A stretch of 7,991 nucleotides of DNA from a virus. Taxonomy: Duplodnaviria > Heunggongvirae > Uroviricota > Caudoviricetes. This document shows, piece after piece, positions 1 to 7,991 of this stretch. Made by a program: the position numbers and the translations under genes. The stretch is from positions 1 through 7,991 of IMG/VR virus record IMGVR_UViG_2698536369_000013; one strand, written 5' to 3'. Below the pieces are notes generated by a model. The model had not been told where the DNA came from and did not search any database. It was given only the letters and a program-made list of their open reading frames with translations. Numbering within the stretch: the first letter of the stretch is position 1; each line of letters starts with the position of its first letter.

Positions 1-54
1 TGAACCGCCCCGGGAATCCTGGAGACTAAACTCCCTGAGAAAGAGGTAAACAGA

Positions 55-381
55 ATGACTAAAAATACTCGTTTTTCCCCCGAAGTCCGTCAGAGGGCGA
101 TTCGTATGGTTCTGGAAAGTCAGGGCGAATATGACTCACAGTGGGCGGCAATTTGTTCCATTGCCCCAAAGATTGGCTGTACACCGGAGACTCTGCGTGT
201 CTGGGTACGCCAGCATGAGCGGGATACCGGAGGCGGTGATGGCGGGCTCACCACCGCTGAACGTCAGCGTCTGAAAGAGCTGGAACGTGAAAATCGTGAA
301 CTGCGCCGCAGTAACGATATCCTTCGCCAGGCTTCCGCTTATTTTGCGAAGGCGGAGTTCGACCGCCTCTGGAAAAAGTGA
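55..381 (+). CDS. IS629 OrfA (transposase N-terminal HTH / leucine-zipper protein, 108 aa)
   Basis: ATG at 55, stop TGA at 379-381. Translation [22 protein letters not shown]...[32 protein letters not shown] is the typical IS3-family OrfA. Confidence 0.9.
373..378 (+). other. Putative programmed -1 ribosomal frameshift window (A-AAA-AG run at the orfA/orfB overlap)
   Basis: AAAAAG at 373-378 immediately before the OrfA stop and inside the orfA/orfB overlap. IS3-family elements typically frameshift on an A6G-type slippery motif. Exact heptamer register not verified. Confidence 0.45.
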
Positions 382-1268
382 TGCCACTGCTGGATAAGCT
401 GCGTAAGCTGTACGGGGTCGGACCGGTATGCAGTGAACTACATATTGCCCCGTCAACGTATTACCACTGTCAGCAACAGCGACATCATCCTTATAAACGC
501 AGTGCCCGTGCGCAGCGCGATGACTGGCTGAAGAAAGAGATACTGCGCGTATACGATGGGAATCATCAGGTATACGGTGTGCGTAAAGTCTGGCGTCAGT
601 TGTTACGGGAAGGAATCAGGGTAGCCAGATGTACAGTGGCGCGCCTCATGGCGGTTATGGGACTTGCCGGTGTTCTCCGGGGTAAAAAGGTCCGCACTAC
701 CGTCAGCCGGAAAGCCGTTGCCGCAGGCGACCGCGTAAACCGTCAGTTTGTGGCAGAACGTCCTGACCAGTTGTGGGTGGCTGATTTTACTTACGTCAGC
801 ACATGGCAGGGGGTCGTCTATGTGGCGTTCATCATTGATGTGTTTGCCGGATACATCGTGGGGTGGCGGGTCTCATCGTCTATGGAAACGACATTCGTGC
901 TGGATGCTCTGGAGCAGGCGTTATGGGCCCGTCGACCGTCCGGCACAGTCCATCACAGTGATAAAGGTTCTCAGTATGTATCGCTGGCCTACACACAGCG
1001 GCTTAAGGAAGCCGGATTACTGGCATCAACAGGAAGTACTGGTGACTCGTATGACAACGCGATGGCGGAGAGCATCAATGGCCTTTACAAAGCGGAGGTA
1101 ATACACCGTAAGAGCTGGAAAAACCGGACAGAAGTGGAGCTGGCCACACTCACGTGGGTGGACTGGTATAACAATCGACGATTGCTGGAAAGGCTGGGCC
1201 ATATCCCACCGGCAGAAGCAGAAAAAGCTTATTATGCTTCCATCGGCAACGATGATCTGGCAGCCTGA
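378..1268 (+). CDS. IS629 OrfB (DDE transposase catalytic domain, probably made as an OrfAB fusion by -1 frameshift)
   Basis: Open frame in -1 relative to OrfA, overlapping its 3' end; stop TGA at 1266-1268. DDE-type motifs visible ([25 protein letters not shown]). The independent start (GTG 378 / ATG 381) is uncertain because expression is normally by frameshifting. Confidence 0.85.
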
Positions 1269-1395
1269 GTTCACAGATAAAACACTCTCCAGGAAACCCG
1301 GGGCGGTTCATACCTTTCACGCGAACGCTGCCAGTTAATACTGACTCAGCTTGTTATGGCGGGTCTGGCAGATTATCAGTTCGGTTGTTACAGAC

Positions 1396-1420
1396 GCCTT
1401 CCGCAGTGAAGGCTTTTTAA
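1396..1420 (+). terminator. Candidate intrinsic terminator (GCCTTC-cgcagt-GAAGGC followed by TTTTTAATTT)
   Basis: 6-bp perfect stem 1396-1401/1408-1413, 6-nt loop, then T5 at 1414-1418. Short stem, so only moderate support. Lies between the IS629 right end and the methyltransferase gene. Confidence 0.4.
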
Positions 1421-1559
1421 TTTGTGGTAATGGGCGGCTGGTGGGTGTTAGCGGCACCTGCCAGCCATCTGTTCATGCGTTGGGGTCACAAGCAAACCTC
1501 AGGCCCATCTGCTTTGCGCAAAAGCGGTATGAGCCTATCAGAGAAGTGCTTATTGATCT

Positions 1560-2606
1560 ATGGCCAATACTGTAAAAATATCCAGTTGTGAGTTAATCAA
1601 CGCTGATTGCCTGGAATTTATCCAGACCTTACCGGAAAACTCTGTCGATCTGATAGTCACAGACCCGCCATACTTTAAAGTGAAGCCCGAGGGCTGGGAT
1701 AACCAGTGGAAGGGCGACGATGATTACCTGAAATGGCTGGACCGATGTCTGGCGCAGTTCTGGCGGGTACTGAAGCCTGCCGGAAGTCTCTACCTGTTCT
1801 GTGGTCATCGCCTGGCATCTGATATCGAAATCATGATGCGTGAACGCTTTAATGTGCTGAACCACATTATCTGGGCGAAGCCGTCCGGGCGCTGGAACGG
1901 ATGCAACAAGGAAAGCCTGCGGGCGTATTTCCCGGCAACAGAACGCATTCTGTTTGCAGAACATTATCAGGGGTCATACCTGCCCAAAAATGACGGCTAT
2001 GCGGCAAAGGGGCGTGAACTAAAACAGCACGTCATGGCCCCGCTGATTTCTTACTTTCGTGATGCGCGTGAATCACTAGGGATAACGTCAAGACAGATAG
2101 CGGAAGCCACCGGAAAGAAAAACATGGCTTCGCACTGGTTTGGTACCAGTCAGTGGCAGTTGCCGAACGAAGGCGATTATCTGAAATTACAGGCGTTGTT
2201 TGCGCGTATTGCAGCAGAAAAACATCAACGCGGGGAACTGGAAAAGCCACACCACCAGCTGGTCAGCACATACAGTGAACTGAACCGGCAATATGCCAGC
2301 CTGCTGGATGAGTACAAATCTCTGCGGCGTTATTTTTCCGTATCGGCTGCCGTTCCGTATACGGATGTCTGGACGCACAAGCCTGTGCAGTATTACCCCG
2401 GCAAACATCCCTGTGAGAAACCGGCGGATATGTTGCGTCAGATAATTACCGCCAGCAGCCATCCGGGAGATTTGGTTGCTGATTTTTTTATGGGGTCGGG
2501 ATCAACAATAAAAGCAGCATTATCGCTGGGACGGCATGCAATAGGTGTGGAGCTGGAAGAAGAGAGATTTAACCAGACTGTAAGCGAAATAAAAGAAAAT
2601 AGTTAA
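1560..2606 (+). CDS. DNA methyltransferase, beta-class amino-MTase (N6-adenine or N4-cytosine), 348 aa, no adjacent restriction gene
   Basis: ATG 1560, stop TAA 2604-2606. DPPY motif (IVTDPPYF) near the N-terminus and an AdoMet-binding FxGxG motif (DFFMGSGST) near the C-terminus, i.e. motif IV before motif I. No endonuclease partner in the window. SD is weak, so the start is not certain. Confidence 0.85.
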   Translation: MANTVKISSCELINADCLEFIQTLPENSVDLIVTDPPYFKVKPEGWDNQWKGDDDYLKWLDRCLAQFWRVLKPAGSLYLFCGHRLASDIEIMMRERFNVLNHIIWAKPSGRWNGCNKESLRAYFPATERILFAEHYQGSYLPKNDGYAAKGRELKQHVMAPLISYFRDARESLGITSRQIAEATGKKNMASHWFGTSQWQLPNEGDYLKLQALFARIAAEKHQRGELEKPHHQLVSTYSELNRQYASLLDEYKSLRRYFSVSAAVPYTDVWTHKPVQYYPGKHPCEKPADMLRQIITASSHPGDLVADFFMGSGSTIKAALSLGRHAIGVELEEERFNQTVSEIKENS

Positions 2607-2787
2607 ATATGTGTGTGATTATTTGTAATCAATCACGAGTGATAGAAATTTATACATATATTTACTAATATTGACACTATGTTTATTGAAATAGTGTTTG
2701 CCCTCATTAATATCAATAGTCGGTTCCGAGGAGATGACAGGGAAATAATGCATATATCGGTCGTTTTATTTTTTCCGAGGAACCGTT

Positions 2788-2860
2788 GCCGATTTAACTT
2801 AGCAGACAAAGCAACTGACTTGTAATCACCGGGTCGCCAGTTCGATTCCGGTAATCGGCA
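2788..2860 (+). tRNA. tRNA-like element, probably a degenerate or non-canonical tRNA (anticodon loop CTTGTAA would read UGU)
   Basis: Perfect 7-bp acceptor stem (GCCGATT / AATCGGC), canonical T-loop TTCGATT, and correct 73-nt spacing. But the anticodon stem has only 3 pairs, the D-stem 3 pairs, G19 is replaced by A, and no CCA is encoded. Confidence 0.3.
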
Positions 2861-2866
2861 CTATAT

Positions 2867-2941
<75 letters not shown>

Positions 2942-3223
2942 GCAGAGGACAATAGATGCTAGGTTGTGTTAGGCACTGACACATTATATGTGTGGGATGT
3001 TTTTGTTTTACCCTGACTCCTTACTACATCCCGTCCTGTAATGAATGTTATTTATTACGGTATCAGTGCTGATTTTTTTATAACATCGGAATGGCGCATT
3101 GTCGGTGGAGATTTTGTATTTCCTGACAGGGTCGGTGATGTGTCATCCCGATGTTGTAAACATCGCTAAAAATGACATTGAGATTAATCATATACTAAGC
3201 AAAACCTGGAAATACATCCTTTA

Positions 3224-3248
3224 CCGCCTCCACCGGGCGGTTTTTTTT
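3224..3248 (+). terminator. Rho-independent terminator downstream of the tRNA cluster
   Basis: CCGCC (3224-3228) / GGCGG (3236-3240) stem with 7-nt loop, followed by T8 (3241-3248). Confidence 0.6.
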
Positions 3249-3620
3249 ATTCTGAACCCTAAAAAAAGAAACACGGACACTGATAATGCCCGTGTGGCAA
3301 TGCCATGTAAGTTAGCGATGAATATGGCGCAAAAAAAGCGCGGCCGTCGGATTAACGCCGCGGGACAAAGTCCATGAAGAATCATAAGTATCTGTCTCCT
3401 TCAGGAGACGAGTTGATATTACTAAGCTTTAAAAATGGTTTAAATCCTCAGATTAACCTTAATTTCAGGTAAGTCTTATTTCATTTCTTTGCGCCACGCC
3501 CGGCGCACATCAAAAACCACAGAGCCTTTCAGGGGTGAGCTTACGGGATGGTCAGTGTGACTTTCTCTGTGGGCTGGTCACCCCCGGGCGCAGGCTCACC
3601 CACTAAAAGGAAAAGTCACG

Positions 3621-4282: not shown

Positions 4283-4675
4283 ATGTCTGAACCCTTATCC
4301 GGTTCCGGCACGGCTGCGGCGCTCGGCGGGGCGACGGTATTCGGGCTGTTTACCGGAACGGATTTCGGGATTGTGTTTGGTGCGTTCGCCGGGGCGTTGT
4401 TTGTGGCAACGATGCCGCAGAAGATTTCAGCCTGGCGTGTGGCGGCACATTTTCTGGTGTCGTTCATTGTTGGTGTACTGGGGGCGCGTGTACTGTCAGC
4501 CTGGATTGCATCAAAAACAGGTTATGACGGTACATCTGCGGATGCACTGTGTGCGGTGCTGGTGGCGGTGGTGTCGGTGAAGATTCTGTCGTTCATCCAC
4601 CAGCAGGATATCGCATCACTGGTGTCCGGCCTGTTCTCGCGCCTGCGGGGCGGAGGAGGCGGCAATGTTAAGTAA
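4283..4675 (+). CDS. Putative holin / lysis membrane protein (130 aa, 3-4 predicted TM segments, Gly-rich)
   Basis: Strong SD AGGAG (4271-4275) then ATG 4283; stop TAA 4673-4675. Hydrophobic helices with GxxxG-like spacing and a charged C-terminal tail. Sits immediately upstream of the endolysin and is translationally coupled to the next gene. Confidence 0.6.
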   Translation: MSEPLSGSGTAAALGGATVFGLFTGTDFGIVFGAFAGALFVATMPQKISAWRVAAHFLVSFIVGVLGARVLSAWIASKTGYDGTSADALCAVLVAVVSVKILSFIHQQDIASLVSGLFSRLRGGGGGNVK

Positions 4676-4940
4676 CCTTCCCGGATTGCTGAATGTGGCG
4701 TTATGCACGGTTATCGTGCTGACGCTCTTTTTTTATCGTCGCCGTGATTCCAGACATAAACCGCTGATGTCATGGCTGGCCTGGTTGCTGATGCTGCTGT
4801 ATGCCTTTGCGCCCCTCAGCTATCTGTGTGGTCGCCCGTTAGCAACGGGCTGGCTGGAAGTGTTTTTTAATTTGTTGTTCTGCGTGCTGGTAATACGCGC
4901 ACGCGGGAACGTCACAAAAATCTTTCCATTGTTGAGGTGA
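4665..4940 (+). CDS. Second small membrane protein of the lysis cassette (91 aa, 2-3 TM; holin or antiholin-like)
   Basis: ATG 4665 overlaps the upstream stop (ATGTTAAGTAA); stop TGA 4938-4940 lies 2 nt before the endolysin ATG. Strongly hydrophobic (LLNVALCTVIVLTLFFY..., WLAWLLMLLYAF...). Confidence 0.55.
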   Translation: MLSNLPGLLNVALCTVIVLTLFFYRRRDSRHKPLMSWLAWLLMLLYAFAPLSYLCGRPLATGWLEVFFNLLFCVLVIRARGNVTKIFPLLR

Positions 4941-4942
4941 AT

Positions 4943-5320
4943 ATGCCGGGTAAATTCAGATTCAGCCGTCGGAGCGAGAAAAATCTGGAGGGCGTCAAAC
5001 CACAACTGGTTGCTGTCGTTCGCCGTGCCCTTGAGCTGACGGAAGTTGATTTCGGTATTACGGAAGGCCTGCGCAGTAAGTATCGCCAGAAACAGCTGGT
5101 CGCGGAAGGGAAAAGTCAGACCATGAACAGCCGCCATCTGACCGGTGATGCGGTGGATGTTGTGGCCTACGTTGGCAACCAGGTGTCATGGGACTGGCCT
5201 CTGTACGAGAAAATCGCGCAGGCATTTAAGCAGGCTGCCGCAGAGCTGGGAACTGCCATCGAATGGGGCGGGGACTGGAAAACACTGAAAGACGGGCCTC
5301 ACTTCCAATTGAAACGCTGA
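4943..5320 (+). CDS. Endolysin, peptidase M15 family (L-alanyl-D-glutamate / D-Ala-D-Ala type zinc peptidase), 125 aa
   Basis: SD GAGGTG (4934-4939) then ATG 4943; stop TGA 5318-5320. Motifs typical of M15 phage endolysins: SRHLTGDAVDV (His/Asp metal ligands) and a C-terminal GGDW...DGPHFQL block. Confidence 0.8.
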   Translation: MPGKFRFSRRSEKNLEGVKPQLVAVVRRALELTEVDFGITEGLRSKYRQKQLVAEGKSQTMNSRHLTGDAVDVVAYVGNQVSWDWPLYEKIAQAFKQAAAELGTAIEWGGDWKTLKDGPHFQLKR

Positions 5321-5334
5321 TAGCCGGGCGAGTT

Positions 5335-5517
5335 ATGAGCCGAAAACACTGGACACACAGAATGCCGCGAGCGGCGGCAAAATGGGCACTGGTAGCGATA
5401 CTGGTGCCTTTTTTATTGGTGGGGTGCGTCAGCCTGGATAAGGCGCGCCAGCTTTTCGATACGGCTTCTCAGGTCTGTGAAATTGTCGACGGTGTTCGAC
5501 AGTGTCTGCAGAGCTGA
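5335..5517 (+). CDS. Small lipoprotein (60 aa; possible o-spanin-like or accessory lysis lipoprotein)
   Basis: Signal peptide with lipobox: KWALVAILVPFLLVGC (Cys after LVG). Lies immediately after the endolysin. Start at ATG 5335 or 5362 is ambiguous; no C-terminal TM segment; not Pro-rich like classical Rz1. Confidence 0.5.
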   Translation: MSRKHWTHRMPRAAAKWALVAILVPFLLVGCVSLDKARQLFDTASQVCEIVDGVRQCLQS

Positions 5518-7210: not shown

Positions 7211-7756
7211 ATGAAGGTTAATAAAAAGAAGCTTGCCGAAATTTTCAACGTGGATCCGCGAACGATTGAACGCTGGCAGTCTCAGGGACTCCCTTGCGTC
7301 TCCGGAGGTGGTAAGGGCGTTGAATCTGTATTTGATACCTCCATGGCAATTCAGTGGTATGCGCAGAGGGAGGCTGATATCGAAAATGAAAAACTCCGTA
7401 AAGAGGTTGAGGATTACAGGGCTGCCAGTGAGGCAGATCTCCAGCCTGGGACTATTGAGTACGAACGCCATCGACTTACGCGTGCGCAGGCCGACGCACA
7501 GGAGCTGAAGAATGCCAGAGACTCCGCAGAAGTGGTGGAAACCGCATTCTGTACTTTCGTGCTGTCACGGATCGCAGGTGAAATTGCCAGTATTCTTGAC
7601 GGGATCCCTCTCTCGGTACAGCGGCGTTTTCCGGAACTGGAAAACCGACATGTTGATTTCCTGAAACGGGATATCATCAAAGCCATGAACAAAGCAGCCG
7701 CGCTGGATGAACTGATACCGGGGTTGCTGAGTGAATATATCGAACAGTCAGGTTAA
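7211..7756 (+). CDS. nu1: Terminase small subunit, lambda Nu1-like (181 aa)
   Basis: ATG 7211, stop TAA 7754-7756. From about residue 70 onward the protein is essentially identical to lambda Nu1 as I recall it ([42 protein letters not shown]...LSEYIEQSG). The N-terminal winged-HTH region ([28 protein letters not shown]...) is clearly related but diverged. Confidence 0.95.
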
Positions 7757-7991
7757 CAGGCTGCGGCATTTTGTCCGCGCCGGGCTTCGCTCACTGTTCA
7801 GGCCGGAGCCACAGACCGCCGTTGAATGGGCGGATGCCAATTACTATCTCCCGAAAGAATCCGCATACCAGGAAGGGCGCTGGGAAACACTGCCCTTTCA
7901 GCGGGCCATCATGAATGCGATGGGCAGCGACTACATCCGTGAGGTGAATGTGGTGAAGTCTGCCCGTGTCGGTTATTCCAAAATGCTGCTG
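7731..7991 (+). CDS. A: Terminase large subunit, lambda gpA-like (5' partial, first 87 codons; continues beyond the window)
   Basis: GTG start at 7731, overlapping the Nu1 3' end by 26 nt exactly as in lambda. Translation [87 protein letters not shown] matches the lambda A N-terminus. Confidence 0.9.

Follow-up and report, generated by a model that had tools for sequence, protein, structure and literature searches.

A complete IS629-type element interrupts the small accessory gene that opens the late region of a lambdoid E. coli prophage and probably does not stop lysis or packaging

We analyzed a stretch of 7,991 nucleotides (hereafter, the window) that constitutes the entire draft contig CYBM01000061.1 of the assembly GCA_001284545.1. 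The first base of the window is base 1 of an insertion sequence (IS), which occupies the left end of the contig and is followed by a prophage late region. Given its position at a contig end, the IS sequence may be a consensus of several copies in the genome. The element comprises the following features:

1-1310, + strand: IS629-type insertion sequence of the IS3 family, complete, 1310 bp
1-25, + strand: left inverted repeat (IRL), 25 nt
55-381, + strand: orfA, 108 aa, helix-turn-helix part of the transposase (Pfam HTH_Tnp_1, PF01527, E = 1.8e-12)
336-452, + strand: ALIL pseudoknot (Rfam RF01497, 116.2 bits against a gathering score of 50, E = 2e-30)
378-1268, + strand: orfB, 296 aa, in the -1 frame, DDE part of the transposase (Pfam rve/HTH_21)
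1286-1310, + strand: right inverted repeat (IRR), 25 nt

The first-pass annotation of this DNA had described a complete IS629-like element with both inverted repeats and intact orfA and orfB, and this description holds. The two terminal repeats, which begin TGAACCGCCCCGGG, are imperfect, with 92% complementarity, and match the termini of the copy annotated as IS629 in phage BP-4795 except for one base of IRR. The products of orfA and orfB match their BP-4795 counterparts at 107 of 108 and 284 of 296 residues, respectively; the rve domain of OrfB (PF00665, E = 4e-27) covers profile positions 2-101 of 102, and D136, D195 and E231 are the candidate catalytic DDE residues. A slippery AAAAAG run is located near positions 372-378, at the orfA/orfB overlap, and the ALIL pseudoknot stimulates -1 frameshifting at such a run. 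Thus, the element shares with IS629 (isoforms IS1203 and IS3411, present in E. coli O157:H7 and Shigella) its length, its termini but for one base, the sizes of both proteins, the 0/-1 frame arrangement, the pseudoknot and a 3-bp target duplication, but differs from the depositor-annotated copies in sequence, with nucleotide identity of 95.5-95.9% (1256 of 1310 positions, or 95.9%, in a gap-free alignment to the BP-4795 copy) and OrfB identity of 96%. The ISfinder rule for isoforms asks for nucleotide identity of 95% or more with the reference, which, judging from these alignments, would make the window element a borderline IS629 isoform. A copy 100% identical to it is present in E. coli PK8241, and the variant with at least 99% identity occurs in 806 E. 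coli records. Location within a prophage is likewise common to this element and most O157 copies of IS629, 62% of which reside in prophages (PMC3271280).

Beyond the element, the window contains the following features:

1311-1313, + strand: right copy of the target duplication, TAC (left copy at positions 10100-10102 of the contig L094, introduced below)
1311-1409, + strand: 3' remnant of a 65-aa winged-helix open reading frame (ORF), codons 34-65 and stop
1396-1420, + strand: hairpin T2, which resembles a terminator and overlaps the small ORF's stop codon; second of two such hairpins after the putative late promoter pR'
1421-1559, + strand: conserved leader upstream of the methyltransferase gene, with a long stem at about 1437-1468
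1560-2606, + strand: phage N6/N4 DNA methyltransferase (PF01555, E = 7e-45), the first intact late-region gene after the IS
2867-2941, + strand: tRNA-Gly (TCC)
3223-3251, + strand: strong site resembling an intrinsic terminator, after the tRNA and ahead of the lysis genes (-11.1 kcal/mol, z = -2.97)
4283-5320, + strand: lysis cassette of two holins and an M15 endolysin, all open
7211-7991, + strand: terminase small subunit Nu1 (PF07471, E = 2.6e-90) and the start of the large subunit

The left flank of the IS was located on another contig of the same assembly, CYBM01000032.1 (L094): an exact 34-aa truncated product on record maps to this contig by exact-sequence look-up, and the last 115 bp of the contig are window positions 1-115. 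The left junction reads AATACTTAC followed by TGAACC, and the right junction reads GGTTCA followed by TACCTTTC. The target-site duplication that the first-pass annotation expected to the left was recovered as a TAC trinucleotide on both sides of the element, and the uninterrupted locus of a related prophage (L002) was reconstituted from the two flanks. Positions 350-10102 of L094 align to 1-9754 of L002, and window positions 1311-3230 align to 9752-11671, such that the two alignments overlap by exactly TAC, which is present only once in L002 (9752-9754). The target duplication of IS629 is 3 bp (PMC3271280), and the TAC common to both junctions indicates simple transposition. The join of the two contigs relies on the matching flanks and the target duplication rather than on an IS-spanning read.

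The IS landed after codon 34 of the 65-aa ORF, which is intact in the relatives L001 and L002. The 5' half of the ORF occupies L094 10001-10105 and ends at once with IS bases 1-3 (TGA), after 34 codons; the open frame at 1311-1409, previously suspected to be the 3' remnant of an interrupted gene, is indeed such a remnant. The ORF belongs to phrog_331 ('unknown function'), is named 'TrmB family' by NCBI, and shows weak similarity to winged-helix proteins (TrmB, MarR). In the relatives, no other ORF separates it from the putative pR' upstream, and it is strongly conserved at this position, with 585 related stretches in IMG/VR. Such positional conservation implies that the ORF might matter for phage growth; natural frameshifted 41-aa variants also occur, however, which suggests that it is dispensable.

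Searching both junctions against 5,426 complete E. coli genomes yielded no case of the same insertion. Among IS-free relatives, the strain of GCA_013063905.1 shows 99.9% identity in the downstream part. Seven O145 genomes that appeared as reverse-orientation junction matches were set aside, as in these the IS is located about 240 bp further on, in the neighboring methyltransferase gene, where an IS629 is fixed in all seven complete genomes. The TAC at codon 34 was hit twice independently and in opposite orientations, in the prophage studied here and in L095. Eight further contigs ending exactly at codon 34 (L096-L103) were discarded as insertions because they stop at or just past that point without any IS bases; they were selected by an exact-length query, and partial products of many other lengths are equally or more common. 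The intact copy, the target duplication and the absence of this insertion from the complete genomes together make an active IS629 population, as proposed in the first-pass annotation, plausible.

Read across the two contigs, the gene order is Q antiterminator, dcm-type methylase, HEPN protein, GmrSD-like protein, the 5' half of the small ORF and the IS, and then the 3' half of the small ORF, T2, methyltransferase, tRNA, terminators, holins, endolysin and terminase. The transposase genes are transcribed in the same direction as the phage late genes. The Q gene (L094 6457-6825) encodes a 122-aa protein of the family PF06530, to which the near-identical Q of L002 is assigned with E = 3e-47. From a comparison of about 100 related loci and the experimentally mapped late promoter of the Sakai prophage Sp5, we infer that pR', a Q-binding palindrome and a pause element are located between the GmrSD-like gene and a predicted hairpin, T1 (L094 9857-9877, to the left of the IS on the other contig), with the pR' site at about L094 9790-9834 and a predicted start near 9830. 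In 27 loci with a PF06530-type Q, a palindrome of 8-9 bp is found about 20 bp upstream of an invariant GTTAAGAGTGG. The palindromes form five classes, and these correspond without exception to five classes of Q C-terminal sequence, irrespective of distance, whether Q is 38 bp or 3389 bp away. Other loci carry lambda-like promoters with a AACGATGGG pause element that abut the same T1 hairpin. A consensus promoter scan made no call at the inferred site in L094, where the -35 element is poor (TAACGC) and the -10 element is TATCGT. Placement of pR' directly after Q, upstream of the cargo genes, was rejected, because in the cargo-free loci L011 and L013 Q abuts the conserved segment and because this segment covaries with the Q type.

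Sp5 shares the layout TTTACGATCGTAAAAA-N6-TATCAT-G-ATAAGAGTGG, at the end of its Q gene. The published distance of 258 nt from the Sp5 pR' start to the RNA 3' end (PMC7547250) fits a start 7 nt after the TATCAT -10 element; we placed this start on the newer Sakai record via the terminator position, which is accurate to a few bases. The Q21/Q933W cassette of Sakai Sp5 and Sp15 (PMC7547250) includes a Q of the same Pfam family as the one in this prophage, and the succession of a palindrome overlapping the -35 element, an A5 run, the -10 element, (G/A)TAAGAGTGG and a hairpin with a T run appears likewise at the putative pR' here. Unlike Sp5 and Sp15, this prophage carries 3 kb of cargo (dcm, HEPN, GmrSD) between Q and the putative pR', its candidate palindrome is GCGTACGC as opposed to ACGATCGT, and its second predicted terminator follows the 65-aa ORF rather than a 200-nt non-coding stretch. 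These comparisons place the putative pR' about 270 bp upstream of the insertion point, so that the IS appears to follow the late promoter and to precede the genes for the methyltransferase, lysis and terminase. The IS therefore does not occupy a harmless intergenic spot with the late promoter downstream of it: a gene is interrupted, and the promoter appears to be upstream.

Of the two hairpins that follow the putative pR', T1 is annotated as a terminator in SfV and Ayreon, but T1 as the sole tR' was rejected, given that the RNA 3' end mapped in Sp5 coincides with the second hairpin (PMC7547250). T2 consists of the stem-loop GCCTTC-CGCAGT-GAAGGC at 1396-1413 followed by TTTTTAATTT. Its folding energy is modest (-9.4 kcal/mol, z = -1.65), and its pairing is retained in distant phages, among them phiP27, Stx2 phages, SfV and Ayreon, in the last with a changed stem. 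The hairpin pointed out in the first-pass annotation is, accordingly, real and conserved, and could be a functional terminator; its identification with tR' is uncertain, although the Sp5 mapping keeps it among the candidates. Within 1311-1559, no Rfam family was detected at the gathering threshold. The right end of the IS likewise yielded no hybrid outward promoter.

The element ends at 1310 and the methyltransferase gene starts with ATG at 1560, a gap of 249 bp that agrees with the roughly 250 bp given originally. The late genes in the window are open, and those for lysis and packaging follow the IS on the same strand. The terminator-like site at 3223-3251 implies that these genes still need antiterminated transcription; a further such site is found downstream, at 3393.

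Insertions of this kind are known. In the Stx2a phages PST1-1, PST2-1, PST1-5 and Sakai Sp5, the same element is located in the Q-dependent unit, between pR' and the lysis genes; in PST2-1, it interrupts an adenine DNA methyltransferase gene (PMC4587872). In 13 PST1-1 Stx2a phages, IS629 lies downstream of stx2 and upstream of the position given for the lysozyme gene, and after induction DNase-protected phage DNA was obtained from filtered supernatants (PMC4587872). Packaged DNA was thus obtained from the Stx2a phages. In the case described here, in contrast, the element hit the small ORF that opens the unit, some 270 bp after the putative start site, and the prophage lacks stx.

On this evidence, we consider it likely that a simple IS insertion into a small ORF left the late genes expressed on induction. 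An IS629-type element would have entered a lambdoid E. coli prophage by ordinary cut-and-insert, duplicating TAC, with the small ORF lost as a result. The IS would then fall within the transcription unit antiterminated by Q, some 270 bp past the late start, and Q would be loaded before the polymerase reaches it; because Q-loaded polymerase is expected to pass both terminators and polar insertions, the late genes would still be expressed on induction. In the lysogen, T2 and the downstream terminators would prevent transcripts that arise in the IS or leak from pR' from reaching the lysis genes. The opposite view, already put forward in the first-pass annotation, is that the IS is polar, such that the lysis and terminase products would be too low after induction and the prophage would be locked in, with neither lysis nor packaging. 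Transcription from the putative pR' does have to cross the element, with its 1.3 kb of foreign sequence, to reach any of the late genes, and the terminator-like sites at 1396, 3223 and 3393 would make the late genes fully dependent on lasting Q modification. However, polarity suppression by Q is a described phenomenon, reportedly since Forbes and Herskowitz in 1982 (cited in PMC12360218), and the interior of the IS contains no predicted sense-strand intrinsic terminator. Furthermore, complexes loaded with Q stay processive for thousands to tens of thousands of nucleotides, ignoring pause and termination sites (PMC9388147), the IS629 at an equivalent place in the PST1-1 phages is compatible with the release of packaged DNA, and an IS629 is fixed in the neighboring gene in the seven complete O145 genomes. 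We therefore regard a polar block as unlikely: the position of the IS between the late promoter and the late genes stands, but the proposal that it cuts them off is not supported.

Other readings appear still less probable. The two contigs might not be neighbors in the genome, the late genes having lost the Q-pR' module by an IS-mediated deletion or inversion, or the arrangement might be an assembly artefact; the window begins exactly at the IS end, the element is spanned by no read or contig, and IS629 is multi-copy in E. coli. Yet another contig of the assembly carries at its end the missing 5' half of the ORF, joined to the left end of the IS, the flanks rebuild L002 with an overlap of the reported IS629 duplication size, and recombination between two IS copies would leave no matching duplications, which makes rearrangement very unlikely. 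We assign an equally slight probability to the idea that the 65-aa protein is a regulator required for normal expression of the late genes or the methyltransferase, so that its loss, rather than polarity, impairs the phage. Across a great many lambdoid prophages that differ in Q type, the ORF is strongly conserved as the first one past T1, it has weak similarity to winged-helix proteins, and the leader that connects it to the methyltransferase gene shows unusual conservation; against this, the 41-aa frameshifted variants occur in nature, phrog_331 carries no assigned function, and Sakai Sp5 is an active phage even though the ORF is missing from it (PMC7547250). Finally, IS629 transposition could be coupled to prophage induction, with the TAC in codon 34 being a true insertion hot spot. 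The coupling is suggested by the sense orientation of the IS and its position some 270 bp past a late promoter with activity also in lysogens, where read-through past a leaky T1 could drive the transposase genes, as full Q-antiterminated transcription would after induction; the hot spot is suggested by the two independent hits at TAC. We consider this reading improbable, if less so than the preceding two.

Simple insertion into a small accessory gene, with the late genes probably still expressed on induction, is thus the reading we favor. The insertion is ordinary, already known in kind, and matters little beyond this strain. IS629-type elements sit mostly in prophages, and lambdoid phages that are otherwise identical differ mainly through them. 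For the annotation of this strain, the two draft contigs can be joined, the small ORF should be annotated as disrupted, and the prophage should not be scored as defective for this reason alone. Automated scans should likewise not take an IS that separates a Q-dependent promoter from late genes as proof, by itself, that a prophage is dead, because polarity is suppressed by Q-modified polymerase.

The left end of the window is a complete IS3-family insertion sequence (IS), recognized in the first-pass annotation as an IS629-like element with both inverted repeats and intact orfA and orfB, and the late genes follow it on the same strand.

Features of the window
1–1310, +: complete IS3-family insertion sequence, with inverted repeats, orfA, orfB and ALIL pseudoknot
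1–25 and 1286–1310: inverted repeats of the IS, 25 nt each
55–381, +: orfA, 108 aa, domain match HTH_Tnp_1
336–452: ALIL frameshift pseudoknot, Rfam match, 116 bits
378–1268, +: orfB, 296 aa, −1 frame, domain match rve
From 1311, +: flank between IS and methyltransferase gene, 249 bp
1560–2606, +: N6/N4 DNA methyltransferase, open
Downstream of methyltransferase, +: tRNA-Gly
After tRNA-Gly, +: several terminator-like sites
+: TerB-like gene, open
+: two holins and M15 endolysin, open
+: small ORFs with no assigned function, open
+: terminase Nu1 and start of large subunit, open

The orfA/orfB overlap contains an AAAAAG run, and D136, D195 and E231 are candidate catalytic residues of OrfB. Over its full length and without gaps, the IS is 95.5–95.9% identical to depositor-annotated IS629 copies, and therefore 'IS629-like' is the correct label for what is a borderline isoform; 107 of 108 OrfA and 284 of 296 OrfB residues match the annotated IS629 proteins, and all tested defining features of IS629 are present, except that the identity is only borderline. 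E. coli PK8241 carries a 100% identical copy, and copies at ≥99% identity occur in 806 E. coli records.

The window is the entire contig CYBM01000061.1 of assembly GCA_001284545.1, which begins at base 1 of the IS because the assembler halted at the repeat, and a junction search of 5,426 complete E. coli genomes found neither IS junction. In two uninterrupted relatives, L001 (ETEC1749, 99.2% identical) and L002 (GCA_013063905.1, 99.9% identical over window 1311–3230), the position matching window 1311 lies inside an intact 65-aa ORF (phrog_331; weak winged-helix similarity; NCBI name 'TrmB family'). The frame at 1311–1409, suspected from the outset to be the 3' remnant of an interrupted gene, is the tail of this ORF. 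The left half was sought as a predicted product which, assuming a TAC duplication, would end in ...NTY followed by the TGA of the IS; the exact 34-aa product is on record and maps to CYBM01000032.1 of the same assembly (L094), the final 115 bp of which are identical to window 1–115. Thus, both the target-site duplication and the other half of the gene, which the first-pass annotation had proposed seeking to the left, were found: the left junction reads ...AATACTTAC/TGAACCGCC and the right junction ...GGCGGTTCA/TACCTTTC, with TAC on both sides. L094 350–10102 aligns to L002 1–9754 and window 1311–3230 to L002 9752–11671, so that the flanks overlap by exactly TAC. The IS thus arrived by simple transposition and duplicated 3 bp of target, as reported for IS629 (PMC3271280); it is very unlikely that these junctions stem from a deletion or inversion mediated by the IS. 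The 65-aa protein was certainly lost through the insertion. It is probably dispensable, because natural frameshifted forms exist and Sakai prophage Sp5 lacks the gene; several 41-aa variants (P0062, P0072, P0086, P0098) share the frameshifted tail ...ILTFHANAAS, and the small ORF has therefore been repeatedly inactivated in nature.

A metagenome scaffold (L095 10100–10153; ENA VALL22-2...scaffold_1933) has the small ORF joined, again at this TAC, to an IS629-type end in the opposite orientation, within a different prophage that has a 126-aa Q and no cargo; this is an independent insertion at the same nucleotide as in the window and L094, although IS629 reportedly has no sequence-specific targets (PMC3271280).

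The position of the late promoter pR' relative to the IS can be predicted from the left-flank contig.

Features of L094, in order
First: S24-type repressor and replication genes
After replication genes: late antiterminator Q, 122 aa, PF06530
After Q: cargo, comprising dcm-type methylase, HEPN protein and GmrSD-like protein
Between cargo and truncated ORF: conserved non-coding segment
9857–9877: T1, first terminator-like hairpin
10001: ATG of small ORF
Last: truncated small ORF
10102: IS junction

We compared loci containing the small ORF, 80 from IMG/VR together with several phage and genome loci. In all of them, T1 (a hairpin and T run, annotated as a terminator in SfV and Ayreon) is the fixed left border of a shared module, ~125–145 bp 5' of the ATG, and to its left lie several unrelated promoter modules, one of them lambda-like (TTGATT-N17-TAAATT, then a AACGATGGG pause element). 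Loci with PF06530-type Q display an 8–9-bp palindrome, AAAAA, ~7 variable bases, a −10-like hexamer and invariant GTTAAGAGTGG (L094 ~9790–9834; L001, L002, L008, L011–L013, L105 and IMG/VR loci). The five palindrome classes (ACG(T/A)(A/T)CGT, GCGTACGC, GCGGTCCGC, GGAATTCC and GTTATAAC) pair without exception, across 27 loci, with the five classes into which the C-terminal region of Q falls, with Q ending anywhere from 38 to 3389 bp upstream. A Q-binding element would be expected to covary with Q in this way. The Q21 site has been published as a direct repeat, whereas these are palindromes. Given the class match, the cargo would separate Q from pR' and not pR' from the late genes. This cargo (L094 6889–9747; L002 6541–9399), with the HEPN and GmrSD_N proteins on the strand opposite the dcm-type cytosine methylase, resembles a defence island; in relatives this position is occupied by an ompC-like porin, a GIY-YIG nuclease or type I restriction-modification genes.

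The end of the Q gene in Sp5 shows the same layout, TTTACGATCGTAAAAA-TCTGCA-TATCAT-G-ATAAGAGTGG, then a hairpin resembling T1, with a second terminator after it. The distance from pR' start to RNA 3' end in Sp5, 258 nt by dRNA-seq and Term-seq (PMC7547250), is consistent with transcription that starts 7 nt past TATCAT and stops within the second terminator's T run, with the start, transferred to the newer Sakai record via the terminator position, accurate to a few bases only. By homology, we infer a late start near L094 9830, which would put the IS ~270 bp downstream of it and upstream of all late genes, an order that the first-pass annotation had supposed; the opposite arrangement, with the late promoter downstream of the IS, would not fit this position. 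The unit around the IS is organized like a late operon of the Q21/Q933W type, here with a predicted promoter.

The hairpin at window 1396–1420 (T2), put forward earlier as a candidate for the terminator tR', is real but is the second terminator-like hairpin after the inferred pR'. It has a 6-bp stem followed by TTTTTAATTT, modest stability (−9.4 kcal/mol, z = −1.65) and conserved pairing, including an altered stem in Ayreon. T2 may well be a working tR', because the mapped Sp5 3' end sits at the second hairpin. The leader from T2 to the methyltransferase ATG (1421–1559) is conserved above flanking coding DNA in SfV, Ayreon and Stx2 phages, and includes a long stem at ~1437–1468 (GGCTGGTG...CACC(TG)CCAGCC), in which Stx2 phages show changes that look compensatory, as well as a palindrome, GCTTTGCGCAAAAGC, at ~1511–1525; no Rfam family matched this leader at the gathering threshold. 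Farther downstream, an Rfam tRNA model matches directly 5' of tRNA-Gly (2788–2860, +; 45.9 bits), where ARAGORN makes no call and L001 has no annotated tRNA. Directly 3' of the endolysin gene lies a 60-aa ORF (5335–5517; phrog_7528), possibly a single-component spanin, which has a stretch resembling a signal peptide and a motif, LLVGC, resembling a lipobox; an Rz/Rz1 pair was not seen.

The further proposal that the IS is polar, leaving the prophage unable to lyse or package, is unlikely to hold. Q would already be loaded, at the pause next to the promoter, before polymerase reaches the IS. Forbes and Herskowitz reportedly described polarity suppression by lambda Q in 1982 (cited in PMC12360218). 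Scanning the IS turned up no intrinsic terminator on the sense strand, and its sense orientation and the translation of its genes would also oppose Rho. For thousands of base pairs, polymerase carrying Q disregards sites of pausing and termination (PMC9388147). PST1-1 Stx2a phages (n = 13) carry IS629 downstream of stx2 and upstream of the stated lysozyme gene position, and they yielded DNase-protected DNA in filtered supernatants after ciprofloxacin induction; in PST2-1 phages, IS629 lies inside an adenine methyltransferase gene (PMC4587872). Seven complete O145 genomes likewise have IS629 in the neighbouring methyltransferase gene. In these seven (RM9872, L104 3894–5107, and six others), the IS629-type element is in reverse orientation, with an intact 65-aa ORF just upstream of the interrupted gene and only a C-terminal methyltransferase fragment annotated.

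It is improbable that transcripts reading through from the late promoter express the transposase and that the TAC, also hit in L095, is an insertion hot spot. The insertion is real and has the topology first proposed, but the event is an ordinary one: IS629-type insertions in lambdoid prophages, late regions included, are already well documented.
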